In this document: positions 2,696 to 23,169 of the stretch, one piece after another | How the letters are laid out: each line of letters starts with the position of its first letter | Position numbering within the stretch: position 1 is the stretch's first letter | Assembly (NCBI RefSeq): GCF_042675605.1 | Contig: NZ_JBHTJF010000025.1 | Location: 12,944 to 36,943, forward strand | Origin: Savagea faecisuis | GTDB lineage: Bacteria; Bacillota; Bacilli; Bacillales_A; Planococcaceae | Reading direction: 5' to 3' | DNA: 24,000 bases | Made by a program: the position numbers and the translations under genes | The notes under the pieces: model-generated | Seen by the model: only the letters and a program-made list of their open reading frames with translations | The model's database searches: none | What the model was told of the DNA's origin: nothing

Positions 2696-3445
2696 ATGAA
2701 AATCGTTCAACCGAAGCCGTTTTTCTTTGAACACGGACCACGTGCGGTGTTATTGTTACATGGCTTTACAGGAACATCAGCAGACGTGCGCATGTTCGGG
2801 CGTTATTTGGAGAAAAAGGGGTATACCTCTCATGCCCCACATTATCGCGGACACGGTGTCCCCCCGGAAGAATTGATCCAAACGAACCCGGATCAATGGT
2901 GGGAAGATGTCGTCGAAGGGTATGAATTTTTGCGCTCGAAAGGGTATGAAGAAATTGCGGTAGCGGGATTATCGTTAGGAGGCGTCTTTTCATTGAAATT
3001 GAGCATAGAATATCCAGTGCTCGGCATCGCTCCGATGTGTGCGCCGATGTCGATGAAAACGACAGACCTCATGTATGAAGGAGTCCTGCAATATGCGGAA
3101 CAATACAAAAAATACGAAGGGAAATCCGAAGAAGAAATCGAACGAGAAGTAGCAGCATTGCGCGAACAGACGATGGATTCCCTTCCTGAATTACAACAAC
3201 TTGTAAAAGATACACGCGCTACATTGGATGAAGTGTACGCTCCGGCATTCGTCGTACAAGGACGACTCGACCGCGTCATCGATCCACAATCTGCGCAAGT
3301 TATTTACGATGATCTTTCGTCATCGGACAAAACATTAAAATGGTATGAGGAGTCAGGACATATTATTACATTAGACAAAGAGAAAGAACAATTGCATGAA
3401 GATTTATTTGCATTTTTAGAACAATTACCTTGGACAGTTTCATAA
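2696..3445 (+). CDS. est: alpha/beta-hydrolase carboxylesterase (Est/YvaK type), 249 aa
   Basis: LLLHGFTG oxyanion region and GLSLGG nucleophile elbow (GxSxG). The secG-est-rnr position is conserved in Bacillales. Confidence 0.75.
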
Positions 3446-3462
3446 TAGAAAGGAGGAGAACA

Positions 3463-5787
3463 ATGGAAGAACAATTACAAGAGCGCTTACTCGACTTGAT
3501 GCGTCACCCGAAGTATTCACCGAGTACAGTCGCACAAATCGAAGAACATTTACAACTCGATGGTGCAGAACAGTTTAAGCAGTTGGTGAAAACATTAGTT
3601 CAGTTAGAACAGAGAGGGGAGATTGTACGTTCCAGAGCGAATCGTTACGGCGTACCAGAGCGGATGAATCATTTGAAAGGCCGCTTTATCGGACACGCAA
3701 AAGGGTTCGGCTTCGTCGCGCCGATGGAAGAGAAGATGGATGACATATTCATTCCACCGAACGCAACGAATGGCGCACTAGATGGTGATACCGTTCTCGT
3801 ACAAGTAGCTGAACATTCTCACGGAGATCGTCGAGAAGGGGAAGTGACGAAAATTGTCGAACGTCATAAACGTTCCGTCGTCGGAACATTTTACGGTTCG
3901 GAAGAGTATAGCTACGTCGTACCCGATGACAAAAAGATTCCGATCAACATTTTCATCGAAGCGGGCAAAACGCTCGGTGCGATGGAAGGACATAAAGTTG
4001 TCGTCGAAATGACGAGCTATCCGACTGAAATTTCAGGCGCAACTGGTTATGTGACGAAAGTGCTCGGTCATAAAAATGACCCAGGCGTCGATATTTTATC
4101 GATCGTTTACAAACATGGCATCCCGACAGAATTTCCAGAAGAAGTGATGGAACAAGCGAACGCTATTCCAGATCACGTCTTACCTGAACAGATGGAAGGA
4201 CGCATGGACTGCAGACAAGACTTGACGATTACGATTGACGGAGCGGATGCGAAAGACTTAGATGACGCGATTTCGGTCGAACGAATGGAAGACGGCACGT
4301 TCATTTTAACGGTGCACATTTCAGACGTCAGTTATTATGTGACGGACGGTTCACCGATGCAGGAAGAAGCGTATGAACGTGGAACGAGTGTCTACTTAAT
4401 CGACCGCGTCATCCCGATGTTGCCACACCGACTTTCGAACGGAATTTGTTCGTTAAATCCAGGCGTTGATCGCTTAACGATGTCATGTCGCATGCATATC
4501 GACGAATCAGGAAAAGTGCTCGACCACGAAATTTTCGAATCGGTCATTAACTCGAAAGAGCGTATGACGTACGATGATGTGTATCACATTATCGACCACC
4601 ATGATGCGGAATTAATGGAGAAGTACGAACATGTCGTTCCGATGTTATTCGATATGGCGAAGCTTGCGAAAATTTTACGAACACAACGCTTCGGACGCGG
4701 GGCAATTGACTTCGACTTTAAAGAGTCGAAAGTGATCGTCGACGAAGAAGGATGGCCGACAGAAATCGAAATGATTGAGCGTACCGTATCAGAACGCTTA
4801 ATCGAAGAGTTTATGCTAGCAGCGAACGAAACTGTCGCCGAACATTTCCACTGGATGCAGTTGCCGTTTTTATACCGAATTCACGAAAATCCGAAAGAAG
4901 AAAAATTACAACGTTTCTTTGAGTTTATTACCCATTTCGGTATTTCGGTGAAAGGGGTCGGCAATACGGTACATCCACGTGCCTTACAAGAAATTATCGA
5001 CTCGATCGCAGGCTTACCAGAAGAAACCGTCATTTCTACGATGTTGCTTCGTTCGATGCAACAAGCGAAATACTCGGATCAAAGTCTCGGTCACTTCGGA
5101 TTATCGACAGAGTTTTATACGCACTTCACGGCGCCAATTCGTCGATACCCAGACTTAATCGTCCACCGTCTCAGTCGCACGTACTTGTTAAAAGGCGAAA
5201 CGGACAAAAAGACGACGGAATATTGGACGAAAGAATTGCCGGAAATTGCGACACATACGTCGAGCTGTGAACGACGTGCCGTTGATGCAGAACGCGACGT
5301 AGAAGCGTTGAAAAAAGCGCAATTTATGGTCGACAAAGTCGGCGAAAACTTCGAAGGTGTCATTTCAAGCGTGACGAATTTCGGTATTTTCATCGAATTG
5401 GACAATACAGTAGAAGGACTCGTCCACGTTCGCGATATGCGGGATGATTACTACAACTTCGACAGTCGCACGATGATGATGATTGGCGAACGTACCGCAA
5501 AACAGTACCGCATCGGAGATAAAGTCGCAATTAAAGTGACGAATGTCGTCCCAGAAGAAGGAACGATTGACTTCGCTTTATACAATCCGAATGAACCGGA
5601 ACGTCAATTTACGAAAAACCGTAAACCACGCGTCATTCAAACGGAAAAGAAACCGCGTCAACGCGCGAAGAAAAAAGGCAATGCGCCGATTGAACGCACG
5701 GAGCGCAGCGGTCAAAAAAAAGAACGTAAATTTTACGAGACGATCGCTAAAAAATCAGCGAAAAAACGTCGTCGTAAACGAAAATAA
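3463..5787 (+). CDS. rnr: ribonuclease R (3'-5' exoribonuclease), 774 aa
   Basis: ATG at 3463 after AGGAGGAG (the track ORF starts 33 nt earlier in the same frame). RNB catalytic region (DGADAKDLDDAISV), C-terminal S1 domain (FEGVISSVTNFGIFIEL) and a K/R-rich tail. Confidence 0.93.
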   Translation: MEEQLQERLLDLMRHPKYSPSTVAQIEEHLQLDGAEQFKQLVKTLVQLEQRGEIVRSRANRYGVPERMNHLKGRFIGHAKGFGFVAPMEEKMDDIFIPPNATNGALDGDTVLVQVAEHSHGDRREGEVTKIVERHKRSVVGTFYGSEEYSYVVPDDKKIPINIFIEAGKTLGAMEGHKVVVEMTSYPTEISGATGYVTKVLGHKNDPGVDILSIVYKHGIPTEFPEEVMEQANAIPDHVLPEQMEGRMDCRQDLTITIDGADAKDLDDAISVERMEDGTFILTVHISDVSYYVTDGSPMQEEAYERGTSVYLIDRVIPMLPHRLSNGICSLNPGVDRLTMSCRMHIDESGKVLDHEIFESVINSKERMTYDDVYHIIDHHDAELMEKYEHVVPMLFDMAKLAKILRTQRFGRGAIDFDFKESKVIVDEEGWPTEIEMIERTVSERLIEEFMLAANETVAEHFHWMQLPFLYRIHENPKEEKLQRFFEFITHFGISVKGVGNTVHPRALQEIIDSIAGLPEETVISTMLLRSMQQAKYSDQSLGHFGLSTEFYTHFTAPIRRYPDLIVHRLSRTYLLKGETDKKTTEYWTKELPEIATHTSSCERRAVDAERDVEALKKAQFMVDKVGENFEGVISSVTNFGIFIELDNTVEGLVHVRDMRDDYYNFDSRTMMMIGERTAKQYRIGDKVAIKVTNVVPEEGTIDFALYNPNEPERQFTKNRKPRVIQTEKKPRQRAKKKGNAPIERTERSGQKKERKFYETIAKKSAKKRRRKRK

Positions 5788-5803
5788 ATGAGAGGTGAGC
5801 CAG

Positions 5804-6271
5804 ATGGCAAAAGGACAAGGGAAGGTCGTCGCCGTCAATCGTAAAGCGAATCATAACTTTGCGATTGAGGAGACGATCGAAGCAGGACTCGTTTTACAAG
5901 GAACAGAAATTAAATCGATTCGCGCAGGCAAAGTACAAATCGCCGATGCATTCGTACTTGTGCGAAACAACGAAGCGTGGGTATCGAATATGCACATTAG
6001 CCCGTATGAACAAGGGAATCGATACAATCACGATCCCGTCCGCGCACGTAAACTGTTGTTGCATCGTCATCAAATCGATAAACTGCAAGGCAGTGTCCAA
6101 CAAGACGGTTACGCGATCGTTCCGTTGAAAGTATATTTGAAAAACGGCTTTGCGAAATTGTTAATCGGACTCGGAAAAGGGAAGAAATTGTACGACAAGC
6201 GTCACGACTTACGTAAAAAAGATGCACAACGTGAGATGGAACGTGCCTTCAAAGCAAAACAGCAATATTGA
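5804..6271 (+). CDS. smpB: SsrA-binding protein SmpB
   Basis: ATG at 5804 after GAGAGGTGA. The product [42 protein letters not shown]... is a typical SmpB, and the gene sits immediately upstream of tmRNA. Confidence 0.93.
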
Positions 6272-6296
6272 TACTTGGCTGGAAATTTGTTATACT
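6268..6296 (+). promoter_or_regulatory. sigma-A type promoter for ssrA precursor
   Basis: TTGATA (6268-6273), a 17-nt spacer ending in TGT (extended -10), then TATACT (6291-6296). Confidence 0.6.
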
Positions 6297-6362
6297 ATTG
6301 GAGTACGTAGAGCTTTGCCTCTATTTCTGTATACGTGTAGAGTGGAACACTCTCCCAATTGC

Positions 6363-6723
6363 GGGGACGTTACGGATTCGACAGGGGTACTTGAGCTTGA
6401 GCTGCGCGTCGGAGGGATCGGCTCCGTCAGAAACGTCAAGCCAATAATAACTGGCAAACAAGAACAAAACTTAGCTTTCGCAGCGTAAGCTGACGAAACT
6501 GCCTTTACTGTCTATCGCCCATGTAGTACGGATAAAGGCTCAACTTTAGTGGGATACGTCTTTTCGCTTCCTTCTGTAGCGAGAGAAAGAGAATAATCAG
6601 AATAGCACGCGGGACGCCTTGATTGGTGGCATAACGACGTGTGAAATGTAAGTAATCAATCTACACGCGTAGACGCTTGGGTGGCAGGGCCTTTGGACGC
6701 GGGTTCGACTCCCGCCGTCTCCA
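6363..6723 (+). ncRNA. ssrA: tmRNA (SsrA)
   Basis: 5' end GGGGACGTTACGGATTCGACAGGGG and 3' end GGACGCGGGTTCGACTCCCGCCGTCTCCA (tRNA-like domain). The internal tag frame at 6453-6488 encodes GKQEQNLAFAA followed by a stop. Confidence 0.92.
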
Positions 6724-6738
6724 TACATCGTGATGGAC

Positions 6739-7338: not shown

Positions 7339-8871
7339 CTATGGTGTAGATTTCATATAACGTGGTGTAGTAGCTATAGGATACTGATTTAGGGCAGGTA
7401 AATAATTATTATTCGTTGCCAATCCGCTAAAACTAAAATAAAATGCCACACGTTCGTCTATGTTCTTCTGATCAATTGCTTGTATAAAGTCTGCCAATCT
7501 ATTTTCTACATAATTTGGTGCGGTGAAATCTGCAAAGGATACCGATTTCAACTCATTAACAGGCAATAAATAAGATTCAATTAGGCTATTGAGCTCATCA
7601 AGTTCGATAGGTGCTAGTAATTCATAATCATAGTCAATATAGATGACTGTTGTAAATTTTTCTCCATATTCTTTGTGTACAATTTCAACCGGATAACGAT
7701 ATCTTGCTTCCGTTCCAATGACACCAGCTGAGAATCTGTTTTGGTAGCGTTCGTTATTAAGAGAAGGCTCTGCTGGTACAGTTTTTTCACCCTTCGTTGA
7801 ATCAACAATCAAATAATCCGTAGTAAAGTTACCTCTAGACGCACCGTTTAAAATGGATTCTTTCATAAATGTTTCATCTAGATAGTTAATTGGCGTACTT
7901 GAAACAGCAAAGGCTGAGCTAATAGCAGTACCACCTGTTATTAATAAAATAATGATTATAAGTATGAAGATGCCCGATTTTTTCTTTCCACTGCTCATAA
8001 TTGCGTGAATTCTTTTTTGTAAAAAATGTGAGTTGCCCGCAAAATTAGTAGAAAAAACACCGATTGGTTTTTTCGTCATTTCGGTATGAAGAATGGCTTG
8101 ACTATATGTTTTTCTTAATGGGTCATCTGAATTTTTTATTACTTCATCATCACAAGCTAATTCACACAGTTGATCTAACTCTTTTGCGAAACGATAAAAG
8201 AGTGGGTTGAACCAATGAATTGCGCTTACGAATAGAATGAAAGCCTTAAACCATAGATCCTTTCGTTGTAAATGCACGAGCTCATGCTTCAAAATCATGT
8301 TTAACTCTTGCTTTTCATAGTCATTTATAGGAAGCCAAATCGTTTGCTTTATAAATCCTGTTAACATCGGTGAATGAATACAACTGGATTGTTTTAAGCT
8401 AATTTCCTTCGTAATTGTCATTTCCTCTTTCACTTGCTCTAGCAATTGAAGCGTATGAGGTTCAACAACCAATTGCCCCCATCTGTTTACTGTTTGCATA
8501 AAGCGATAGTGTTTAAATAGATGCACTGCTAAAAATAGGATGATTCCTCCAATCCAAAGCGACATCAAAACGTGCCAAATTGAAAGTGAGGACATTGTTT
8601 CAACAGTGGATGCCATAAGTGTTATCTCACTACTCTTTGCTGGAACCAGTTCCATCGAAGGCAGCTGCATAGGTTCAGATAGATGAACAATCTTTTTAGA
8701 AATTTTGAAGGTAAATGGCAATATAAATCCAATCAAAATAGCAAGCCAGCTATAATAAAGCCATTTCGCACTGTATCGCTTCAAAAGGAAAGGTGTAACT
8801 ACTACATACAGTATGCCAATAAACGTCATGATGACGGATTTAAACAGTAAACCTACCATGATACTTTGCAT
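7339..8871 (-). CDS. M56-family (BlaR1/MecR1-like) membrane metalloprotease / signal transducer with a non-PBP extracellular C-terminal domain, 510 aa
   Basis: N-terminal multi-TM region with HELVH (HExxH) followed by QRKD, as in BlaR1 peptidase domains. A further TM segment (GIFILIIIILLITGG) precedes ~200 aa that lack an obvious SxxK penicillin-binding motif. The gene abuts a BlaI-family gene upstream (1-nt intergenic gap). Confidence 0.8.
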   Translation of the reverse strand: MQSIMVGLLFKSVIMTFIGILYVVVTPFLLKRYSAKWLYYSWLAILIGFILPFTFKISKKIVHLSEPMQLPSMELVPAKSSEITLMASTVETMSSLSIWHVLMSLWIGGIILFLAVHLFKHYRFMQTVNRWGQLVVEPHTLQLLEQVKEEMTITKEISLKQSSCIHSPMLTGFIKQTIWLPINDYEKQELNMILKHELVHLQRKDLWFKAFILFVSAIHWFNPLFYRFAKELDQLCELACDDEVIKNSDDPLRKTYSQAILHTEMTKKPIGVFSTNFAGNSHFLQKRIHAIMSSGKKKSGIFILIIIILLITGGTAISSAFAVSSTPINYLDETFMKESILNGASRGNFTTDYLIVDSTKGEKTVPAEPSLNNERYQNRFSAGVIGTEARYRYPVEIVHKEYGEKFTTVIYIDYDYELLAPIELDELNSLIESYLLPVNELKSVSFADFTAPNYVENRLADFIQAIDQKNIDERVAFYFSFSGLATNNNYLPALNQYPIATTPRYMKSTP

Positions 8872-8872
8872 A

Positions 8873-9241
8873 TTAATCCCTCTTTTCTTCCACCCATTTC
8901 AGTAAAGATGCTAAATCCTCATCGGAAATATGATCTGATTTATAAAGTGTATTGACCAAATTCAAAACAGACTTTTTATGATAAAGCTCCATAAAATGCT
9001 CCGTTTCAAAACCTAGGTAAGCCTCTTTTTCGATCAATGGATAGTAAAATCTCTCTTTACCTTGTTTTTCACTGCGAAGAAACCCACGCTCCGTTAATCT
9101 TTTCATAAGCGTTACGACCGTTTGGATTTTCCAGCCTTTTTCCTGACCGATTTGCTCCATGATGATTCCAGTTGTAATAGGTGGATGGCTTTCCCAAACA
9201 ATCTTCATCACTTCAAACTCTGTTTCAGGTAATCTTTTCAT
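8873..9241 (-). CDS. BlaI/MecI/CopY-family winged-helix transcriptional repressor, 122 aa
   Basis: MKRLPETEFEVMKIVW...ITTGIIMEQIG...WKIQTVVTLMKRLTERGFL is the typical penicillinase-repressor family N-terminal domain. The gene is paired with the M56 gene. Confidence 0.85.
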   Translation of the reverse strand: MKRLPETEFEVMKIVWESHPPITTGIIMEQIGQEKGWKIQTVVTLMKRLTERGFLRSEKQGKERFYYPLIEKEAYLGFETEHFMELYHKKSVLNLVNTLYKSDHISDEDLASLLKWVEEKRD

Positions 9242-9260
9242 GTATATTCCCCCTTATCCA

Positions 9261-9313
9261 TTTAAGTCAATTGTCTTAAATGTAAATATACAACTTCCTT
9301 AAATATTTTTCAA
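9261..9313 (-). promoter_or_regulatory. promoter plus palindromic operators of the blaI/M56 operon
   Basis: On the minus strand: TTGAAA (9313-9308), 17 nt, then TATATT (9290-9285). The 20-bp near-palindrome TTTAAGTCAATTGTCTTAAA (9261-9280) and the TGTA-n4-TACA dyad (9281-9292) overlap and follow the -10. The TACA/TGTA motif is typical of BlaI/MecI operators. Confidence 0.55.
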
Positions 9314-9769
9314 TCTTTTCCCACTGATTAAAGTAAATTCAACTTGGTATTGATACACCAGCTATCCCTCCATTCATTTTTTCTGGAGTATAGAAGATAG
9401 CGGTCACAACGTGCAAAGCGCTGTTTTTTAAATTTATTTAGATTTTTTTACTTGAAGGTGGTATTAACAAGTAGAAGATTTATTGCGAACAATGTTAAAC
9501 GAGGAAAAAAATCAGGCGAAATAATAAAACCATACTAAGTAATTTTAGCCGTACAGTTTTATGAAGTACTGTAATAGTGATTCTACAAAATTATAATTTT
9601 GTAATTCTGCACCAAATAAACAACACAATATAACCAAGCCGATAATCATAATCATGAAAATAAAAATCAAAGTGAATGTATAAATCATAAAAGAAAAATG
9701 GGAATCTGTTTAGCTGTAGCATTACAGATGTGAGGAATAGTTGTATATTGAAATACAATTTATTAAGAA

Positions 9770-10021
9770 TTGAAGGTGAAAACAAAAGAAGCCCTTGAAA
9801 ACGAGCACCTTTCAACACTTTATGCCAAACATAAAGCAGATATCGAAAGTGCGTTCGGTAATCTAAAGGTGACGCTCACACGATTCCTACCGCGTGGCTT
9901 ATTAAAGACCCAAACAGAGTTTTGGGTTGATTCCATGGCTCATAATTTGAGGAAGTTGGCGGGCAAACGCCTCGCCAATTCTTCCAATACAGCAAAGGTC
10001 CTTGCTACCTTTTTCGCTTAA
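9770..10021 (+). pseudogene. C-terminal fragment of an IS1182/IS5-superfamily-like DDE transposase
   Basis: ...ADIESAFGNLKVTLTRFLPRGLLKTQTEFWVDSMAHNLRKLA fits the C-terminal (E..FG.LK....F..RGL.K...EF.....AHNL.KLA) pattern of such transposases. No upstream catalytic domain is present. Confidence 0.45.
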
Positions 10022-10045
10022 TAATCAAAATTTCTAAATTTAAGA

Positions 10046-10534
10046 TTAGTTATATGCGCCATTAGCATATATAAATAACGATATTGTACCCCCACCTGTT
10101 TTACCATTTGAACCAGTATAGGATACTGTAGAATTAACTTTTGCAAGACGAGTGTTGTTATCTATAATAGAAGTATTTGTTGCTTTCAAGTTAGAGCTAG
10201 TTGGTCTATAAAGTATCTCTGTTTTAGGTTTTGTAACTGCTACCACTTTTCCATCATATACAGCAGTTGCAGTTATTTTAACTGTGCCAAGTCTTGCATT
10301 ATTATAAAGATCAGTCATTTCAACGCTCTTAGATGGATATACTAGACCTCGCGTTAATGTAGGAAGAACTCTAAATTGAATCCCGTCAATTATGTAAACT
10401 TGCTCAGAATTATCTGAAATATTAATTTCGAGAAGGAAGCCTTCGTCTTCTAATTCTTCATTTTGTGCAAAAGCAGCTACTGGTGTTAGGATACATAAAA
10501 TCATTGTTAACATACTAATCAGCCATTTTTTCAT
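10046..10534 (-). CDS. secreted protein of unknown function, 162 aa
   Basis: Sec signal peptide (MKKWLISMLTMILCILTPVAAFA/QNE) and RBS AAAAAGGAGAG. I recognise no domain. Confidence 0.6.
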   Translation of the reverse strand: MKKWLISMLTMILCILTPVAAFAQNEELEDEGFLLEINISDNSEQVYIIDGIQFRVLPTLTRGLVYPSKSVEMTDLYNNARLGTVKITATAVYDGKVVAVTKPKTEILYRPTSSNLKATNTSIIDNNTRLAKVNSTVSYTGSNGKTGGGTISLFIYANGAYN

Positions 10535-10562
10535 TGTTAAATTCTCTCCTTTTTATTCTTTC

Positions 10563-10698
10563 TTGTATAACGGTTTGAAGCTTCCAGACTTTATCACTCC
10601 CTATCTTCTCCATCAGAATCCTGTCGTAATTGGAGGATTTATTTTCCCAAAACAATCTTCATAGCTTCAATCTCTGTTTCAGGTAACTTATTATTCAC
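10563..10698 (-). pseudogene. decayed 5' remnant of a second blaI-family gene
   Basis: GTG start at 10698 after GGGAGGT. The product NNKLPETEIEAMKIV parallels MKRLPETEFEVMKIV of the intact gene. An extra T (GTTTT vs GTTT) shifts the frame. After correction, WENKSSNYDRILMEKIGSDKVWKLQTV aligns with WESHPPITTGIIMEQIGQEKGWKIQTV. Homology ends about 30 nt before the secreted-protein ATG. Confidence 0.65.
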
Positions 10699-10706
10699 AC
10701 CTCCCG

Positions 10707-10759
10707 TTTAAGTCAATTGTCTTAGTTTGTAAGATACAGCTATCTTAAATGATTGTCAA
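10707..10759 (-). promoter_or_regulatory. second copy of the BlaI-type promoter/operator
   Basis: TTTAAGTCAATTGTCTTAG (10707-10725) matches 9261-9279 at 18 of 19 positions. On the minus strand: TTGACA (10759-10754), 17 nt, then TATCTT (10736-10731). Confidence 0.55.
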
Positions 10760-11054
10760 TATAGATTTGTAATAATAAATAAAAAAAGAGTATATTAAAC
10801 ATTTTTAATAAAAAGTTACAGTAAAATAAAATCTCTTATAAACTAGATAAAATTAGATGTGAGGTCATTATGGTTGTAATTGTTGTTCAAGGTCCATGAT
10901 GGGAGATTGAGTTTTGGGCCACGGCACTATTGATACTTGGAAAATTTATAAGTGAATAAAGATGGAGGATGCTAGTGAATTGGAAGCCCTTTTTAAAAAA
11001 TTTAGTGATTAAATTTATTTTTTTATACAACTCAAATACAAATAACGTTCCCCA

Positions 11055-11479
11055 ATGACACTTGAACTGCACCCCAATTTTAACGGTGAAATCATTACCT
11101 ATACAATTGGATCTAGACCTACGTATTCATTAGTTTCGGAGATGTTAGAGAAGACTTTGGAGAGATTGCCAGAGGAACATCAGCTACTGATGCATTCCGA
11201 TCAAGGCTGGTATTATCAAATGAAACAATATCGCCCTACTCTTAAATCAAGAGGCATTGTGCAAAGCATGTCTCGTAAAGGCAACTGTTACGATAACTCG
11301 GGGATGGAGAATTTCTTTGGCATTATGAAGTCAGAATTCCTCTACTTCAAGGAATTTGCGCGCATTTTAAAGAAGAACTAAAAAAATATATCAACTATTA
11401 CAACACGAAACAGATCAAGGCAAAATTAAAAGGCATGAACCCGATACAATATCGAACACATGCCCAACTAGCTGCCTAA
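11055..11479 (+). pseudogene. IS3-family transposase (OrfB integrase core), C-terminal fragment with frameshift
   Basis: NGEIITYTIGSRPTYSLVSEML...HSDQGWYYQ...SMSRKGNCYDNSGMENFFGIMKSEF is the IS3/IS150-type DDE core. The tail TKQIKAKLKGMNPIQYRTHAQLAA continues in another frame to 11479. An IS3-like right end ...GTGTCTAATTTTTGGGGGTCACTTCA runs to about 11512. The N-terminal two-thirds is missing. Confidence 0.75.
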
Positions 11480-11585
11480 ATTAACCGTGTCTAATTTTTG
11501 GGGGTCACTTCATGTTGGGAAACATTTGATTCTTAACCTACCAATTTCCAAAAGGTGGGCTGTAGCCTTGTTAAAAAAAGATTAC

Positions 11586-11786
11586 CTAATCATTAAATTC
11601 CCAAAATAATTCATCGAATGTTTTATTCAGTGCTTTGCAAATAGATATACAAACAGATAGTGTTGCGTTGTATTTTCCTAATTCAATCAAACCAATCGTT
11701 TGCCTTGTGACCCCAACTTTTTCTGCTAAATCGCCTTGTGACATATCCAATGCGATTCGTGCTGTCTTCATTCGTACATTTTTCAT
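11586..11786 (-). CDS. XRE-family helix-turn-helix transcriptional regulator, 66 aa
   Basis: RIALDMSQGDLAEKVGVTRQTIGLIELGKYNATLSVCISICKAL is a canonical Cro/C1 HTH. Confidence 0.8.
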   Translation of the reverse strand: MKNVRMKTARIALDMSQGDLAEKVGVTRQTIGLIELGKYNATLSVCISICKALNKTFDELFWEFND

Positions 11787-11807
11787 TGCTTATCTTTTTC
11801 CAATTCT

Positions 11808-12086
11808 TCAAGTGTTTTTCCACTTACACGCTCGCTCTTTTCCTTTCGTATTCCTAACTTCTTCCGAAAAGATACCCAAATTTGTCGAACGTACTAGATA
11901 ATAAATCGCCCCAGTAATTAAAATAATCATTTCTGTTCCAAGATTTTCAAATCCACCTTTTCCAAAAATGACTTTCAATACCATACTGCCACTACAAATC
12001 ACTAGCACAAAAACATAAATTTCTCGATAAATTTTGTTTTGCAAATTTGTAATACGCTCATCCTGAATCATTTGACGCTTAAACAT
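11808..12086 (-). CDS. small membrane protein (2 predicted TM), co-oriented upstream of the XRE gene
   Basis: The ORF has two hydrophobic stretches (IYVFVLVICSGSMVLKVIF, MIILITGAIYYLV) and lies 21 nt upstream of the XRE gene. The pairing resembles common Firmicute membrane-protein/XRE two-gene units. Confidence 0.5.
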   Translation of the reverse strand: MFKRQMIQDERITNLQNKIYREIYVFVLVICSGSMVLKVIFGKGGFENLGTEMIILITGAIYYLVRSTNLGIFSEEVRNTKGKERACKWKNT

Positions 12087-12306
12087 ACCTCAACCTCCAT
12101 CTCTCGAATTAACTTTAAATATACAATATACATTGCAAATAAGTTTATCCATTTTTCTATAAAATGAATATTGCAGATGAGAAAGGCCATTAAGAATGTA
12201 CTTCAATGCCCCAATTGTTGAATAAGAAAAATGCACCCAAACCGACGTTTGGGAACATTATCTCCCTTAACGTTGTAAACTCGCATTTTTCTGACGGGAC
12301 GCCAGC

Positions 12307-12618
12307 TTACACAACCATTTTGCCCAAGCGGTTAATGTACCAGACGAGTATGACAATGCCCAATACAATTAAAATAGAAATCATTTGAGCTGCAATTGAG
12401 CCGGCAACTGCTACACCGAACGGCAAAATAAGTGTAAGTACCCCACAAATCATAAGAAAAAGCCCAACTGCTTTAGCTAATTTGTTTTTATCTCCTTTAA
12501 AAGTTTCTTCTTTAAATCCTGCAATGAGTGTAAATTGTTATTTCTTCCATATCATGTAACTAAAAAAGAAAAGCAAACTACTTGTGAAAAGGCAAACTAT
12601 TACCCCACCTATAATCAT
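12307..12618 (-). pseudogene. DUF3784-like small membrane protein interrupted by an in-frame TAA
   Basis: My own translation: RBS GGAGG, then ATG (12618-12616) MIIGGVIVCLFTSSLLFFFSYMIWKK, TAA at codon 27, then in the same frame QFTLIAGFKEETFKGDKNKLAKAVGLFLMICGVLTLILPFGVAVAGSIAAQMISILIVLGIVILVWYINRLGKMVV and a stop. 104 codons in total. Confidence 0.6.
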
Positions 12619-13010
12619 AAAAGAACCTCCTAATTCACTTTAATCAATCAGGACTTAGTCATGAACGTCGTATTTAAAATTTAGAAATCAAATGTATAAA
12701 GAAGAGTTTAATATGTTATTTGGAAGCCTTTGTATAGAAGTGAATCTGTCTTCTGATGAAATCATTTAAAGGATGCTAGGTGATGAGAAAAGTAGCATTG
12801 CTTAATTATAAAGGGTTATCTTTAGAAACCGTTAGAGTATACATTGCAAGAGGAGAATATTTGATTAGCATTTTATAATGTTATAGCCATTCGAAGCTCT
12901 TATTCATTACAAATTTATTATTGAATTTGAAAATGCATATTTTCGTTGAATGCGGATCTAGATAATGATTTTCCCCTATCAAAACGCGATGGTAAAAGAA
13001 AGCTATTCAT

Positions 13011-13050
13011 TTTTAAGATTATACCTTATACTAGGACTATAATCTTAAAA
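13011..13050. promoter_or_regulatory. perfect 13-bp inverted repeat (candidate operator) containing a TATAAT box
   Basis: TTTTAAGATTATA (13011-13023) and TATAATCTTAAAA (13038-13050) are exact reverse complements separated by 14 nt, ending 7 nt before the 13058 ORF. Confidence 0.4.
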
Positions 13051-13057
13051 AGGTTGT

Positions 13058-13360
13058 ATGTCCATGATAATTAATATCAATCCTGATGTGATAGAAACTC
13101 AACTAGTAGGATTTGTTCCCGAGTGTATCATCAATTATTATGCCATTCAGTGTGCGAGCCTTGCAGTATATATGCCTCCAGGTGTTTTAAAACATTTAAA
13201 AAAGCGTGATTATTGGGATGATTTCCTCAAGTACTATCAAGATATACCTAGCATAATTGCAACACCTGATTATGCTGGACAAAATCCAAAAGAACCTAAT
13301 ACGATAGAAATATATAAAGGTTATTTGAGGTGGGAAAGGTTCCCCACGCGCTATCTGTAA
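13058..13360 (+). CDS. hypothetical protein, 100 aa; possibly the N-terminal part of a PBECR/Barnase-EndoU-like phage/ICE nuclease-family protein
   Basis: ORF with a weak RBS. The stretch GVLKHLKKRDYWDDFLKYYQDIPSIIATPDYAGQNPKEPNTIEIYK resembles (from memory only) the H-containing N-terminal region of small PBECR-type proteins. The last ~13 residues look unrelated. Confidence 0.4.
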   Translation: MSMIININPDVIETQLVGFVPECIINYYAIQCASLAVYMPPGVLKHLKKRDYWDDFLKYYQDIPSIIATPDYAGQNPKEPNTIEIYKGYLRWERFPTRYL

Positions 13361-13382
13361 AAATAGTTACCAGAGATCAGGA

Positions 13383-13410
13383 TTGCCGCCCTGCTGATAG
13401 CCTTTATAAT
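13383..13410 (+). promoter_or_regulatory. candidate sigma-A promoter for the RT leader/ncRNA
   Basis: TTGCCG (13383-13388), 16 nt, then TATAAT (13405-13410). A second candidate, TTGTAA (13667-13672), 18 nt, TATAAT (13691-13696), lies nearer the RT. Confidence 0.4.
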
Positions 13411-13545
13411 CAATAAGCCTCGTTCATTTATTATGAAGGAGGTATTTTATATTTTGTACTAGATAGTAAACAACAAAGTGTAAAATTTGCTTTTTATCCA
13501 CTTAAATGGGATAATATAGTTGTTCTGTGAAAATAGTCGCAGAAG

Positions 13546-13557
13546 TGTTGAGTTTCA
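13546..13557 (+). repeat. left copy of a 12-nt direct repeat (TGTTGAGTTTCA)
   Basis: Matches 13696-13707 (TGTAGTGTTTAA) at 10 of 12 positions, at an offset of exactly 150 nt. Confidence 0.5.
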
Positions 13558-13695
13558 CGCTTGTCAAGGTTATAAATATTTATAACCTCAACAAGCAACC
13601 TAGTGAAATCTACCAAGAACAGCACAAGCTGGATCTCTGAAGAAGAACTAGACAAACTTAGCAGCATTGTAATTACCTCCATATGGTAAGTATAA

Positions 13696-13707
13696 TGTAG
13701 TGTTTAA
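13696..13707 (+). repeat. right copy of a 12-nt direct repeat (TGTAGTGTTTAA)
   Basis: See 13546-13557; pattern TGTnGnGTTTnA. Confidence 0.5.
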
Positions 13708-13799
13708 GAACAAGAACTCCGTTTTATACGGGGATAGTGGTCAACAGAGCATTCATCTCGGATGAATGACACCAAATTAGGCTAGGAGGTTTTCTGGTT

Positions 13800-15203
13800 A
13801 TGAATCAGAGTAATGGACCACAACACCAATTACATAACCTCTCTAGCTCTTCTATTATTAAATGGGAGAAGTACAAGACTAAAGGTTATTTGCATTTTGA
13901 TGAACGGATACATATAGGGCATATGAAGGCTAATCTTTTGAATGAAGATTGGGTCGCTTCGTATGCTTTTTTACCGTTTATACATTTTGAGATGAATTCT
14001 AAAAGATATGTAACGATTAAAGAAGTGGATGAATTGGGTCAGGTAATTAAAAGAAAAGAACAAGGGAAGCCTAAAAGCCGTAAAATATTTTATGCTGCCC
14101 ATAAGGATGGCTACATCTATAAATATTATGGTGACTTATTAAACAATGCTTATAATAAATATGCAGTTGACAATCATATTGATGACAGCGTGATAGCATA
14201 TAGAAATAATAAACCAGGAAAAAACAATATTGATTTTGCGTTTGAAGTATTCAATCATCTGTTTAAGTTTGAAAATGCAGTAGTCATCACAAGTGATTTC
14301 ACTAAGTATTTTGATAACATATCACACCAAACATTGAAACAGAATATAGGAAGAGTACTAGGTGTAGAAACCTTAAAACGAGATTGGTATCAAGTATTTA
14401 AGAATCTTACACGATTTACATATGTCGATAGGAAAGATATTGATATGTTTTTAGAAGCAAAGCATGGAAGAACATTGAACAAAAAAATCAAGACATATAA
14501 AATTAATCGAATTATGACTTCAAGTGAATTTAGGACGTTTAAAAAAGAATATTTAAAACATAATCCCAATCCTGATTCTTATGGAATTCCACAAGGATCA
14601 AGTATGAGTGCAGTTTGTTCTAATGTACATCTGATTGACTTTGATAAAGAAGTAATTGACTGGTGCAATAAAAGGTCTGCTAATGCAATGTATAGAAGAT
14701 ATTGTGATGATTTAATAGTAATTATTCCTCTTGAAAGACAAAATACAAGAGAGTTTGAATCAATCCGAAATGAGTTATTTGAAATCATTGATAAATATAA
14801 AAGTGACGGATTAGATGTGCAACCTGAAAAAACAGAAATACGGTTATGGGATGGTGACTATATACTAGATGAGCAATTACAGCCATCTAAATTAGATTAC
14901 TTGGGGTTTGTGACTGATGGACAGATGATTCAATTAAGGGAAAAAAGCCTTTTCAATTATTATACTAGAGCATATCGCAAGGCCAAAACAGTAAAACGTA
15001 TTGAATATGCGACAGGACGACCGGGACCCAAAAGGTCATTGTATGATTTATACACCCATCTGGGATTCGATTACAAAAATCGTGGGAACTTCGTTACTTA
15101 TGCTTATAGAGCACATAGGAAAATGTGTCAGTTGCCAGTGAAGAGTCTGATTAAGAAGCAGGTTAAGAGGCATTGGGGCAAGATACATAGAAGATTAAAT
15201 TAA
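13800..15203 (+). CDS. stand-alone reverse transcriptase (defence-type UG/Abi/DRT-like), 467 aa
   Basis: RT motifs:
- SDFTKYFDNISH (motif A, residues 165-176).
- GIPQGSSMSAVCSNVHL (motif B, residues 262-278).
- RRYCDDLIVI (YxDD box as YCDD, nt 14700-14711).
- KTEI and YLGF (motifs D/E).
There is a ~165-aa N-terminal extension and a ~90-aa basic C-terminal tail. No maturase, endonuclease or other fused domain is recognisable. RBS AGGAGG lies 10 nt upstream of the ATG. Confidence 0.9.
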   Translation: MNQSNGPQHQLHNLSSSSIIKWEKYKTKGYLHFDERIHIGHMKANLLNEDWVASYAFLPFIHFEMNSKRYVTIKEVDELGQVIKRKEQGKPKSRKIFYAAHKDGYIYKYYGDLLNNAYNKYAVDNHIDDSVIAYRNNKPGKNNIDFAFEVFNHLFKFENAVVITSDFTKYFDNISHQTLKQNIGRVLGVETLKRDWYQVFKNLTRFTYVDRKDIDMFLEAKHGRTLNKKIKTYKINRIMTSSEFRTFKKEYLKHNPNPDSYGIPQGSSMSAVCSNVHLIDFDKEVIDWCNKRSANAMYRRYCDDLIVIIPLERQNTREFESIRNELFEIIDKYKSDGLDVQPEKTEIRLWDGDYILDEQLQPSKLDYLGFVTDGQMIQLREKSLFNYYTRAYRKAKTVKRIEYATGRPGPKRSLYDLYTHLGFDYKNRGNFVTYAYRAHRKMCQLPVKSLIKKQVKRHWGKIHRRLN

Positions 15204-15860: not shown

Positions 15861-16023
15861 CTCTTATATCGAGAAGCGGAGGGACTGGCCCTGTGAAGCT
15901 TCGGCAACCATTGATTTTTTATCAAACGGTGCCAATTCCAGCAAGGGAAACCTTGGAAGATGAGAGGAGCAGTGCATATTTCGTATGACGCGACCTCTTT
16001 TTATATAGGGGTCGCTTTTTACT
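15861..16023 (+). promoter_or_regulatory. SAM-I (S-box) riboswitch with terminator expression platform
   Basis: CTCTTATATCGAGAAGCGGAGGGACTGGCCCTGTGAAGCTTCGGCAACC...GGTGCCAATTCCAGCAAG...GAAGATGAGAG matches the S-box consensus. A GCGACCTC/GGGGTCGC hairpin plus T-run follows at 15989-16023. Confidence 0.9.
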
Positions 16024-16227: not shown

Positions 16228-16286
16228 GCCTCTTCGTTTGAAGATTTGTGCTCCTAAGCACGTCATCTTCATCGAAGGGGCTTTTT
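16228..16286 (+). terminator. compound hairpin plus T-run between the yezD-like ORF and metQ
   Basis: Outer stem GCCTCTTCG (16228-16236) / CGAAGGGGC (16273-16281) with one mismatch. Inner stems GAAGAT/ATCTTC and GTGCT/AGCAC. TTTTT follows at 16282-16286. The metQ ATG lies 25 nt downstream with no obvious promoter of its own. Confidence 0.5.
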
Positions 16287-16310
16287 ATATGGAGAAAAGG
16301 AGAATGCATA

Positions 16311-17141
16311 ATGAAACAACTACTAACATGGTTCCTCGTATTGAGTACTGTTCTTATATTTACAGGATGTGACGGAGAAGCAAAGGGTGAAACAAATCAA
16401 ACCATTACGATTGGAGCTACAGCTGGTCCATATAGTGATCAATTAAAAGAAGGAATCGCACCGATTTTAAAAGAGAAAGGATTCACGTTAAACATTATTG
16501 AATTTCATGATTATATTCAGCCGAATAATGCATTAGAAGAAGGGGATGTCGATGCGAATTTATTCCAAAACCGTTTATACTTATCGAATTTTAACGAGCA
16601 TCAAGGGACGAAGCTTACTGCGCTTTTTGCTGTCCCGACTGCTCCCATTGCGATGTATTCAAAACGACATCAATCGCTCGACGATCTTGAGCCAGGAATG
16701 ACGATTTCATTACCGAACGATACGGTGAATTTAGCTCGTTCGCTCAATATGTTAGAGAGCTACGGGTGGTTAACAGTTGATCCAAATGTTAACCCGATTA
16801 CAGCCTCTGAAAAAGATGTTATCGATAATCCGTATCATCTAAAGTTGAATCCGTTAGAAGCGGCAGCGACCCCTCGTTCTCTTGAGGATGCTGATTTTGC
16901 TTTCGTCAATGGAAATTATGCGATTGCTTCTGGATTGAAGTTGACAGAAGCAGTGGATGTTGAACAAACATCGGAAGATTTTTTAATTTATTTAACGATT
17001 CGTGAAGGAGAGGAAGATGAGCCGTTCGTTCAAGCATTAAAAGAAGCGTATGAATCGGAAGAATTTTATACTTATACACTAGAACATTCCCAAGGGTACG
17101 TCTTACCTCCATATCAACAAGAACAGGAGGCGAAAAAATGA
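16311..17141 (+). CDS. metQ: methionine ABC transporter substrate-binding lipoprotein (MetQ/NlpA family)
   Basis: ATG at 16311 after AAAAGGAGAA. Lipoprotein signal MKQLLTWFLVLSTVLIFTGC. NlpA-family body (IGATAGPYSD..., FVNGNYA). The stop overlaps the metN start (ATGA). Confidence 0.85.
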   Translation: MKQLLTWFLVLSTVLIFTGCDGEAKGETNQTITIGATAGPYSDQLKEGIAPILKEKGFTLNIIEFHDYIQPNNALEEGDVDANLFQNRLYLSNFNEHQGTKLTALFAVPTAPIAMYSKRHQSLDDLEPGMTISLPNDTVNLARSLNMLESYGWLTVDPNVNPITASEKDVIDNPYHLKLNPLEAAATPRSLEDADFAFVNGNYAIASGLKLTEAVDVEQTSEDFLIYLTIREGEEDEPFVQALKEAYESEEFYTYTLEHSQGYVLPPYQQEQEAKK

Positions 17142-21653: not shown

Positions 21654-21696
21654 CCCACCACGCCTCTTTCCAATGCGTACCACGGTGGGATTTTTT
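21654..21696 (+). terminator. Rho-independent terminator
   Basis: CCCACC-ACGC ... GCGT-(bulge)-GGTGGG, followed by ATTTTTT. Confidence 0.5.
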
Positions 21697-21817: not shown

Positions 21818-23169
21818 ACTCACAATGAGCATTTTTAGATACAAATTTTACCACATAAAAAGAAACGATAGCCACCCTATGCCACAAATAGCTCTTTTTT
21901 GATTTGGTCCAGTGATGTGCCTTCTTGCGCTTCGTTGTACACAAACTCAATGATGCCGCTGAATTGGGCGCGTCTCATTTGGTGAATCGCGACTGAAAAT
22001 GGCTGAAGCTGGAGCGCACCGATGAGTAAGTAAGCGAATTGAATTAATAGCCAGTAGCGGTAAATCGCCCGTTCATGACGCACTTGAACGCCTTGAAAGC
22101 CAAGGTAGCCTTTCACTTGTTTGAAGTACGTTTCAATCGCCCAGTGTTCACTGTAATAATCGAGAATTTGTTGGGTAGACAATTCGGTATCTGTGCTTAA
22201 AAAACAGCGTAAATGCTTGGTTTCCATCGGTTCATTCGCTGGCCAACAGAGGACGACCACACCGCAATCTAAATCGTTTAACGCACCTTCATAGCGGTAC
22301 ACACGGTACGTTTCTTGCCCGACCGTCACGATATCGGTTTCTTGTGCAGAAATGTGTGTCGCAAATTGTTTGACCTGTGTGCGAATGCCTGCTGGATAAA
22401 TGATGCGATTCGTTTTCAGCGCACCGATGACATGCATGCCTTGCCCAAATGCCGCTTCGATGAGTGCCTTTGACGTATACCAACTATCGCATAACACATA
22501 CGTTGGCTGGGTGGCTTGTGGTAAATCTTGAATGAAATCGACCGAGAGCTGGATTTTACTTTCATCCTTTTCTTTTTGAAAATGACGAAAATCATACGGA
22601 AACGCTTGTTCACCTGATTTCATCATCACCTGCAGCACTTGGTGTCCCCAAACGACCTTGCCTTCCGTGTGTGAAAAATGGAATCCGCAGCCCTGAATCG
22701 GGTGCTGTGCCTGTGACGAAGGCTTCTTTTTCTTGGCAAGCGTATCATCGAAGAGCCAAAATAACGGCTGCTTCGGATCAATTTGGCGACGCACATAGCG
22801 CTGACATTGTTGCTGTAAATAGCTCTCGTTCCAAGGACTTTTTTGAAGAAAGTGACTCAGCGTGGTGCGGTGTTTCGGATGATGGCTATACGCATGAATC
22901 TGCGTAAGTTTTCCTGTAAATCCGATGCTCGACATGCCATCGATAAAGTGCGTAAAATGACGCAAAACAGGCTTCGAAAAGTAAAATGGCAATTGCCAAT
23001 CAGAAAACCCTTTGTTGATTTTTTCATGATGTGATAAACTGTTCATCAGACAGACGCTCCTTTGGTGAATGGTGGTGTAGGAACTTTCATTTTACCTAAA
23101 GGCTGGCGTTCTGTCTTTTTCTATTTTATTATATGGTAATTATTTGAAGTGAATTTACTCATTGTGAGT
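21818..23169 (-). mobile_element. complete insertion sequence (1352 bp), IS701/IS4-superfamily type
   Basis: 12-bp terminal inverted repeats ACTCACAATGAG (21818-21829) and CTCATTGTGAGT (23158-23169), with sub-terminal ACCA(C/T)ATAA matches. A single transposase ORF fills the element. Confidence 0.75.
21877..23046 (-). CDS. DDE transposase, IS701-family-like, 389 aa
   Basis: DDE-type signatures WLFDDTLAKK, VLCDSWYTS and HWAIETYFKQVKGYLGFQGVQVR, with an N-terminal region typical of IS701-like transposases. Family assignment is from memory. Confidence 0.8.
   Translation of the reverse strand: MNSLSHHEKINKGFSDWQLPFYFSKPVLRHFTHFIDGMSSIGFTGKLTQIHAYSHHPKHRTTLSHFLQKSPWNESYLQQQCQRYVRRQIDPKQPLFWLFDDTLAKKKKPSSQAQHPIQGCGFHFSHTEGKVVWGHQVLQVMMKSGEQAFPYDFRHFQKEKDESKIQLSVDFIQDLPQATQPTYVLCDSWYTSKALIEAAFGQGMHVIGALKTNRIIYPAGIRTQVKQFATHISAQETDIVTVGQETYRVYRYEGALNDLDCGVVVLCWPANEPMETKHLRCFLSTDTELSTQQILDYYSEHWAIETYFKQVKGYLGFQGVQVRHERAIYRYWLLIQFAYLLIGALQLQPFSVAIHQMRRAQFSGIIEFVYNEAQEGTSLDQIKKELFVA

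Follow-up and report, generated by a model that had tools for sequence, protein, structure and literature searches.

A DRT2 reverse transcriptase locus of Savagea faecisuis with a putative circularly permuted neo template antisense to its leader RNA

The stretch of Savagea faecisuis DNA analysed here (24,000 nucleotides (nt); contig NZ_JBHTJF010000025.1, positions 12,944 to 36,943; hereafter the window) contains a gene for a reverse transcriptase (RT) of the anti-phage DRT2 (UG2) family and, directly upstream on the same strand, a leader that is a conserved, covarying RNA. We consider it very probable that this leader is a template of the DRT2 neo type, i.e., that it would become a self-promoted neo gene devoid of stop codons once copied head-to-tail. 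The relevant features, numbered from the first base of the window, are as follows.

13800-15203, plus strand: DRT2 (UG2) RT gene, 467 amino acids, with PADLOC, Pfam and Protein Data Bank (PDB) matches
13487-13515, plus strand: likely sense promoter of the noncoding RNA (ncRNA) and the RT gene, with -35 TTGCTT at 13487-13492, a 17-nt spacer and extended -10 TGgGATAAT at 13507-13515
13522 to ~13850, plus strand: predicted DRT2 ncRNA of ~330 nt (5' handle, template, 3' scaffold), delimited by fold, covariation and identity to the ncRNA of Lysinibacillus sp. LK3
13523-13544, plus strand: 5' handle hairpin, TTCTGTGA / TCGCAGAA, 8/8 pairs compensatory, 97% of cells paired
13546-13557, plus strand: 5' direct-repeat copy TGTTGAGTTTCA, with its GUUU core at 13552-13555
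13546-13555 with 13654-13663, plus strand: 10-bp basal stem holding the 5' GUUU, 86% paired, 5 pairs changed on both sides
13552-13701, minus strand: proposed template of 150 nt, corresponding to a single neo repeat unit, with one open circular frame of 50 codons, MLLSLSSSSSEIQLVLFLVDFTRLLVEVINIYNLDKRETLHYTYHMEVIT
13567-13562, minus strand: -35 TTGACA, 127 nt downstream of the -10 and part of the predicted junction promoter; the neo frame reads it as L-D
13664-13698, plus strand: template hairpin in which the start-codon region pairs with the -10 region, 86% of cells paired, 6 pairs changed on both sides
13667-13665, minus strand: likely neo start codon ATG, 8 nt after GGAGG
13680-13676, minus strand: putative ribosome-binding site (RBS) of neo, GGAGG, 8 nt after the -10
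13694-13689, minus strand: -10 TATACT of the predicted junction promoter
13696-13707, plus strand: 3' direct-repeat copy TGTAGTGTTTAA, with its GUUU core at 13702-13705, unpaired and just outside the template
13717-13733 and 13750-13768, plus strand: 3' scaffold hairpins of the minimum-free-energy fold, with the conserved block GTGGTCAACAGAG between them
13780-13848, plus strand: long-range helix GGCTAGGAGGTT / AACCTCTCTAGCT (also given as GGCUAGGAGGUU / AACCUCUCUAGCU), 94% of cells paired

Judged by its matches, the product of 13800-15203 is a DRT2/UG2 reverse transcriptase. PADLOC assigned it to Drt2 with an E-value of 1.2e-135 (2e-18 for the next family), the Pfam match was RVT_1, and among solved DRT2 structures PDB 9c0i ('Antiviral reverse transcriptase Drt2') aligned with residues 25-457 at E = 1.3e-51. 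The catalytic YCDD motif is encoded by TAT TGT GAT GAT at 14700-14711, as read from the DNA; in an alignment of 22 homologues Y301, D303 and D304 were invariant and C302 nearly so. The transcript comprising ncRNA and RT probably starts near 13522: the published LK3 ncRNA (Tang et al., PMC11100668) begins at the equivalent base, and the TTG...TGnTATAAT blocks of the sense promoter are kept in the leader alignment. This promoter was not listed by a consensus scan because its -35 is weak. The -10 region at 13667-13696 is nearly palindromic, and its plus strand also reads TATAAT with TTGTAA 18 nt upstream (10/12 matches in the scan); this TATAAT could belong to an internal promoter directed towards the RT gene.

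Opposite the leader, one minus-strand frame is open from 13703 to 13497 (69 sense codons between TAA at 13706-13704 and TAA at 13496-13494). It contains TATACT, GGAGG, the likely start codon and a further in-frame ATG at 13682-13680, while TTGACA lies downstream of all of these, so that the two halves of a promoter stand in the wrong order. On the plus strand, the direct repeats TGTTGAGTTTCA and TGTAGTGTTTAA are identical at 10/12 positions and offset by 150 nt, and they bring a GTTT pair to the template ends (13552-13555 and 13702-13705) at the same offset. When 13552-13701 is concatenated, exactly one frame is open and the junction reads TTGACA-AGCGTGAAACACTACAT-TATACT, with a 17-nt spacer. 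The predicted join, GCGTGAAAC to ACTACATTATAC (also given as GACAAGCGTGAAAC to ACTACATTATACT), leaves out the in-frame TAA at 13706-13704, and any join within 13552-13556 gives an identical product. An earlier sequence-only reading of this DNA had described the open frame with both of its stop codons, the two hexamers, GGAGG, both ATGs, the repeats and the head-to-tail unit; all of its coordinates were correct, and the 50-codon peptide that it quoted was reproduced. It had also pointed to the architecture of the Klebsiella DRT2 system, an attribution now supported by the Drt2 and 9c0i matches, the covarying leader and a published, nearly identical Neo predicted for LK3 (see below).

The same strand could instead carry an ordinary small gene, for example a toxin gene opposite the RT leader, running from ATG 13682 to TAA 13494 (62 amino acids). 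This open reading frame (ORF) appears in a mechanically produced ORF list, and GGAGG is followed by an ATG. However, the consensus scan revealed no promoter-like minus-strand sites in 13400-13800, and the hexamer located 17 nt upstream of TATACT, where a native -35 element would be, is GTTCTT. Beyond 13552, the ORF runs across the 5' handle hairpin and the sense promoter, and no Pfam match was found for the linear ORF. Its end also varies among close relatives, being located at -247/-248 from the RT start in four of them (L002, L003, L004 and L018) and at -303, i.e., 55 nt further, in the window. Since the linear ORF stops at the unit boundary in close relatives and beyond it in the window, it is not the conserved object. 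The 62-residue ORF was therefore rejected as a conventional gene on its unconserved end and absent native promoter, and we regard such a gene as highly improbable.

To the extent that the neo-type design can be followed in other genomes, it is conserved. A total of 80 DRT2 loci were taken from species-representative genomes, ca. 25 of them from the Bacillales clade of the window (RT identity 47-86%). The antisense strand of every leader contained an open stretch of 52-122 codons in the same place. In 18 aligned leaders, the -35 element was TTGACA or a one-mismatch variant in 17 (the remaining leader, L014, has TTGCTA, with two mismatches), and the -10 element was TATAAT, TATACT or TACAAT in 17/18. 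The distance between the two elements was 118, 121, 124, 127 or 136 nt; with the 17-nt junction spacer, the corresponding units are therefore 141, 144, 147, 150 or 159 nt, all multiples of three. An automated unit search, anchored on the conserved GTTT...TGTCAA block and conducted on 25 near-clade loci, recovered the complete design (-35, -10, 17-nt spacer, GTTT at both ends, open circle) in 22. In these 22 loci the offset between the GTTT copies equals the unit length, a 138-nt unit joins the lengths just given, and one open circular frame was present in every case (22/22), at roughly 50% nucleotide divergence across loci. The comparison with homologues was one that the sequence-only reading had proposed, and its three expectations held: the boundary spacing is a multiple of three (22 loci, 138-159 nt), the antisense unit stays free of stops, and the split promoter is conserved. 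Choosing the junction by the longest microhomology alone had produced spurious pairs in several loci, and this procedure was replaced by the GTTT...TGTCAA anchor.

Translation signals and predicted products are conserved as well. The plus-strand CCTCC block, which is the complement of the RBS, is kept in most leaders, and the position equivalent to the neo start is ATG or GTG, at a fixed distance from GGAGG. The predicted Neo peptides share a hydrophobic core and the residues that the signals impose, namely L-D-K from the -35, Y-N from the -10 and E-V or E-A from the RBS. The Vibrio/Klebsiella-type units in Table S1 of Tang et al. (PMC11100668) are read in the same frame over the -35 (CTT GAC, L-D) and the RBS ((M/V)-E-V). 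In the wider family, 55/77 antisense leaders (71%) combine an open circle with a split promoter and a unit whose length is divisible by three, compared with 9/77 sense leaders and 49/1002 control pieces (5%). On these sequence comparisons, the occurrence of the permuted design across relatives is far beyond chance.

The same permuted design was also seen in other Firmicute clades (L026, L027, L031, L032, L035, L052 and L038-L049), with units of 123-162 nt. The junction microhomology is different there: the predicted complementary DNA (cDNA) ends in TCAC or TTCAC in some loci, and in those from Lachnospiraceae it ends in ATAC or AATAC. Clades thus seem to differ in their jump motif.

The leader behaves as a structured RNA. 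Its fold z-score is -5.05, and when the minimum-free-energy fold of the window was scored on 19 homologues, 85.9% of cells were paired, compared with 34-43% when the partners were slid; 43 pairs were altered on both sides. In Rfam, no family matched the DRT2 ncRNA of the window or those of 20 homologous loci. The 5' GUUU core, which is held in the basal stem, has invariant G, T and T in 18 leaders, with the fourth position nearly so; in one locus (L013), both repeat copies read GTTC and the stem partner of the 5' copy reads GAAC in place of AAAC. Of the internal hairpins within the template, one includes the -35 complement, and the loop of the hairpin at 13664-13698 holds the complement of the RBS. 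In the 3' scaffold, all 8 pairs of the hairpin at 13750-13768 are compensatory and the GTGGTCA block is conserved; covariation extends to the 5' handle, both 3' hairpins and the long-range helix over the RT start. The 3' part of the ncRNA covers the RBS of the RT gene and approximately the first 17 RT codons. Most of the long-range helix at 13780-13848 is invariant, 3 of its pairs having changed on both sides, and it encloses the RT Shine-Dalgarno sequence and start codon; a given transcript may therefore either fold as ncRNA or serve for RT translation, but not both. The same helix fixes RT codons 12-17, among which the protein alignment shows H12, S16 and S17 to be invariant.

The presence of both hexamers inside conserved RNA helices raises the question of how much of their conservation is due to RNA structure. 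Part of it could be, and one may imagine that tandem-repeat DNA is made but acts untranslated, for example in the role of decoy or signal, in which case constraints of RNA structure would have given rise to the open frame and hexamers as by-products; other DRT systems, such as DRT10, are described in PMC12632851 as making non-coding repeat DNA. RNA pairing alone, however, does not explain why unit lengths remain multiples of three through every indel, why one frame is free of stops in 22/22 divergent loci, or why the distance from GGAGG to ATG/GTG is fixed and the circular spacer is always 17 nt. In addition, stop-codon and promoter mutants of the Klebsiella homologue lose defence (PMC11100668, PMC12039810). 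We therefore find an untranslated product improbable, though somewhat less so than a conventional antisense gene.

The RT-ncRNA-neo mechanism of KpnDRT2 was published in 2024 (Tang et al., PMC11100668; Wilkinson et al., PMC12039810). In the DRT2 pathway, the ncRNA-bound RT jumps from the 5' end of its template to the 3' end via a short repeat and produces tandem cDNA; once double-stranded, this product rebuilds a promoter at each junction, and the stop-less Neo arrests growth (PMC11100668, PMC12039810). In such systems, the template lies between a 5' handle hairpin and a folded 3' scaffold made up of tower, buttress and pseudoknot; Neo, which lacks any known domain, is predicted to be helical and repetitive. 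As in KpnDRT2, the system in the window consists of one gene, for a UG2 RT, preceded on its own strand by a structured ncRNA, whose template seems to be flanked by a 5' handle hairpin and a 3' scaffold; the antisense promoter halves are likewise permuted, the -10 standing before the -35, and at the repeat junction they lie 17 bp apart. It also has GGAGG followed by a start codon, a unit divisible by three with one stop-free frame, and the same reading frame over the -35 (L-D) and the RBS (E-V). The two systems differ in unit length (120 nt or 40 codons in KpnDRT2, 150 nt or 50 codons here) and in the way the spacer is split (6+11 versus 10+7). The flanking repeats are ACA-1 and ACA-2 in KpnDRT2 and GUUU in the window, where, in addition, the 5' copy pairs with an internal AAAC in the 10-bp basal stem. 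Finally, the host is Gram-positive here.

A closer counterpart is found in Lysinibacillus. Tang et al. (PMC11100668) include the clade of Lysinibacillus sp. LK3 and AR18-8 in the DRT2 family, its ncRNA having been found with a covariance model, and their Table S1 lists both loci with putative ncRNA, cDNA and Neo scored 'TRUE'. The RT is ca. 85% identical to that of the window, the LK3 ncRNA is 86% identical to 13522-13853, and the predicted Neo (MLLSLSSNLEVQLVLFLIEVTSLLVEVLNIYNLDKR..) is close to that of the window (MLLSLSSSSSEIQLVLFLVDFTRLLVEVINIYNLDKR..); the window differs by a 3-nt insertion in the template and by having one T fewer in the 3' repeat. Since an ncRNA of such identity and nearly the same Neo had already been published, our finding is a correct rediscovery. 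What is new, the apparent GUUU jump motif and the probable shift of the unit boundary, is small, the mechanism and its presence in the clade being already published. Two other kinds of system share elements of the design. In circular forms of insertion sequences (IS) and transposons, to which PMC11100668 and PMC12039810 draw the analogy, -35 and -10 elements also lie at opposite ends of a unit and a promoter arises only after the ends are joined; there, however, DNA is excised and circularised, whereas here an RNA would be reverse transcribed into tandem repeats. In telomerase RNA, with its template and alignment region, and in DRT10, a short repeat at the template edge likewise re-aligns the product end for the next round, but the unit is 4-8 nt and non-coding, as opposed to the 150-nt coding unit proposed here.

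By analogy with the Klebsiella work (PMC11100668, PMC12039810), cDNA concatemers, a second strand, a phage trigger, transcription, translation and toxicity would be expected at the S. faecisuis locus, in the following manner. A single sense transcript would consist of the ~330-nt structured RNA followed by the RT gene. The RT would bind the ncRNA and copy the template from ~13701 down to 13552 into DNA, so that GUUU at 13552-13555 would be the last template bases copied and the cDNA would end in AAAC. This end would re-anneal to GUUU at 13702-13705 and copying would restart, yielding a head-to-tail array of 150-nt units; microhomology and promoter spacing place the probable join within the GUUU repeat. 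In a double-stranded array, each junction would unite TTGACA and TATACT across the 17-bp spacer, and the resulting promoter would drive an mRNA with GGAGG, 8 nt, ATG and a stop-less repeat of 50 codons (Neo), whose translation is expected to arrest the infected cell.

Several observations weigh against a neo-type template at this locus. For this locus and its subclade, the interpretation draws on sequence design and conservation. The ACA motifs of KpnDRT2 are absent: reading the template ends revealed no ACA pair at the 150-nt offset. The contiguous microhomology that would support a jump is 4 nt only. In L019-L021, the -35, the -10 (TACAAT) and the 147-nt spacing are kept, but the 3' repeat is weaker (GTGTAA or GTGGAA) and no clear Shine-Dalgarno sequence (GGAGG) precedes the neo start; L019 has an open 147-nt circle, while for L020 and L021 the automated search returned no unit. 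A scan of metagenome contigs for the predicted junction (CTTGACAAGCGTGA N0-10 TACAYTATACT, any join allowed) gave 0 hits, a result that is uninformative because assemblies rarely keep tandem cDNA. An AlphaFold2 model of three Neo repeats was all-helical, with a pLDDT (predicted local distance difference test) score of 45, too poor to inform. The published LK3 unit is 150 nt long and has a 20-nt spacer, whereas the GUUU-anchored LK3 unit is 147 nt with a 17-nt spacer. Lastly, as the sequence-only reading had suspected, the statistics of the single locus are poor. When the unit was shuffled by mononucleotides, 8.4% of the shuffles still yielded an open circular frame. Within the 207-nt open stretch, numerous alternative boundary pairs likewise form an open circle, and it is only through the 17-nt spacer and the repeat offset that 150 nt is singled out. 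Promoter-like sites are no commoner in the region than in shuffles. The open circle at this locus alone is thus weak evidence, and, taken by itself, would leave room for coincidence, i.e., an AT-rich structured leader with a chance antisense open stretch and promoter-like hexamers. That explanation is effectively refuted by the retention of the design over 22 loci with six unit lengths and by its frequency relative to control pieces (71% versus 5%), and we assign it a very slim chance.

A different objection concerns the unit boundaries. The mechanism could be the same and the repeat approximately one codon longer, with boundaries as aligned to Klebsiella and GUUU not being the jump site. The 150-nt LK3 unit of Table S1 (…GACAAGCGTGA joined to TAAAACATT…) is open and was scored Neo 'TRUE', and in the window other multiples of three also close into open frames. 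The published boundaries, however, were derived by alignment to the Klebsiella RNA (Tang et al., PMC11100668). Besides giving the 20-nt -35/-10 spacer, the ends of the published LK3 unit share almost no homology at an offset of 150. Moved to the window (13555-13706 or 13555-13707), the published boundaries produce units of 152 or 153 nt with no open frame. When these boundaries were emulated in the homologues, in a reconstruction of our own, an open frame resulted in 9/22 loci and failed to result in 13/22, versus 22/22 for the GUUU-anchored unit. A longer, Klebsiella-aligned unit is therefore unlikely in our view, although it is the least unlikely of the alternatives considered, and the published unit boundary for this subclade seems, on these alignments, to be one codon too long.

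In the published LK3 row, TCA and AGA stand where ACA-1 and ACA-2 align, ACA being a Klebsiella-like feature. These comparisons suggest that the jump motif is clade-specific, GUUU here and ACA in enterobacteria. We put forward, with confidence evenly divided, that in this Bacillales subclade the register of repeat addition is set by the GUUU pair instead of ACA-1/ACA-2. The nascent AAAC, the internal AAAC of the stem and the two copies of GUUU would compete with each other, and melting of the basal stem could gate each jump. If the register is set in this way, the published, alignment-derived neo units of the subclade are one codon too long, and loci like the one in the window, in which the published boundaries break the frame, would be missed by the published pipeline. 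Because the jump motif appears to be clade-specific, Neo prediction should take its anchors from promoter spacing and local microhomology instead of an alignment with the Klebsiella RNA. The mechanism itself is not new; its design holds across Bacillales DRT2 loci with six unit lengths, and a neo proto-gene that is invisible to standard ORF callers could be recognised by a reader in the raw DNA letters.

The locus belongs to a variable stretch that follows RNase R, SmpB and transfer-messenger RNA (tmRNA) and precedes a SAM riboswitch and metQ; over 3.1 kb, a contig of a metagenome-assembled genome (L001) matches it at 99.3% identity. RNase R, SmpB and tmRNA (6363-6726) occupy 3430-6726. The variable stretch, at 7339-13360, contains a BlaR1/BlaI-like pair, an rve integrase fragment, DUF6773 and an ORF with a PBECR3 domain, in this order, followed by DRT2; it looks like an island at the ssrA hot-spot. 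In a Salinicoccus locus (L005), DRT2 is also located ~2 kb from tmRNA.

A skipping-rope RNA (RF02924, 55.9 bits, E = 4e-11), found at 13320-13401 on the plus strand, precedes the DRT2 ncRNA by ~120 nt and overlaps the final part of the 100-amino-acid ORF at 13058-13360 with the PBECR3 nuclease domain. It was considered as a component of the DRT2 system and rejected: it is absent from 20/20 homologous DRT2 loci and is therefore only a neighbour. Farther downstream, an abiF RNA match (RF03085) at 21654-21690 on the plus strand scored 40.1 bits, just above the gathering score, and adjoins a DDE transposase gene on the minus strand (21877-23046). The SAM riboswitch, at 15861-15966 on the plus strand (94 bits), lies ahead of an NlpA/MetQ-type lipoprotein gene at 16248-17141, an arrangement that is ordinary methionine-transport regulation.

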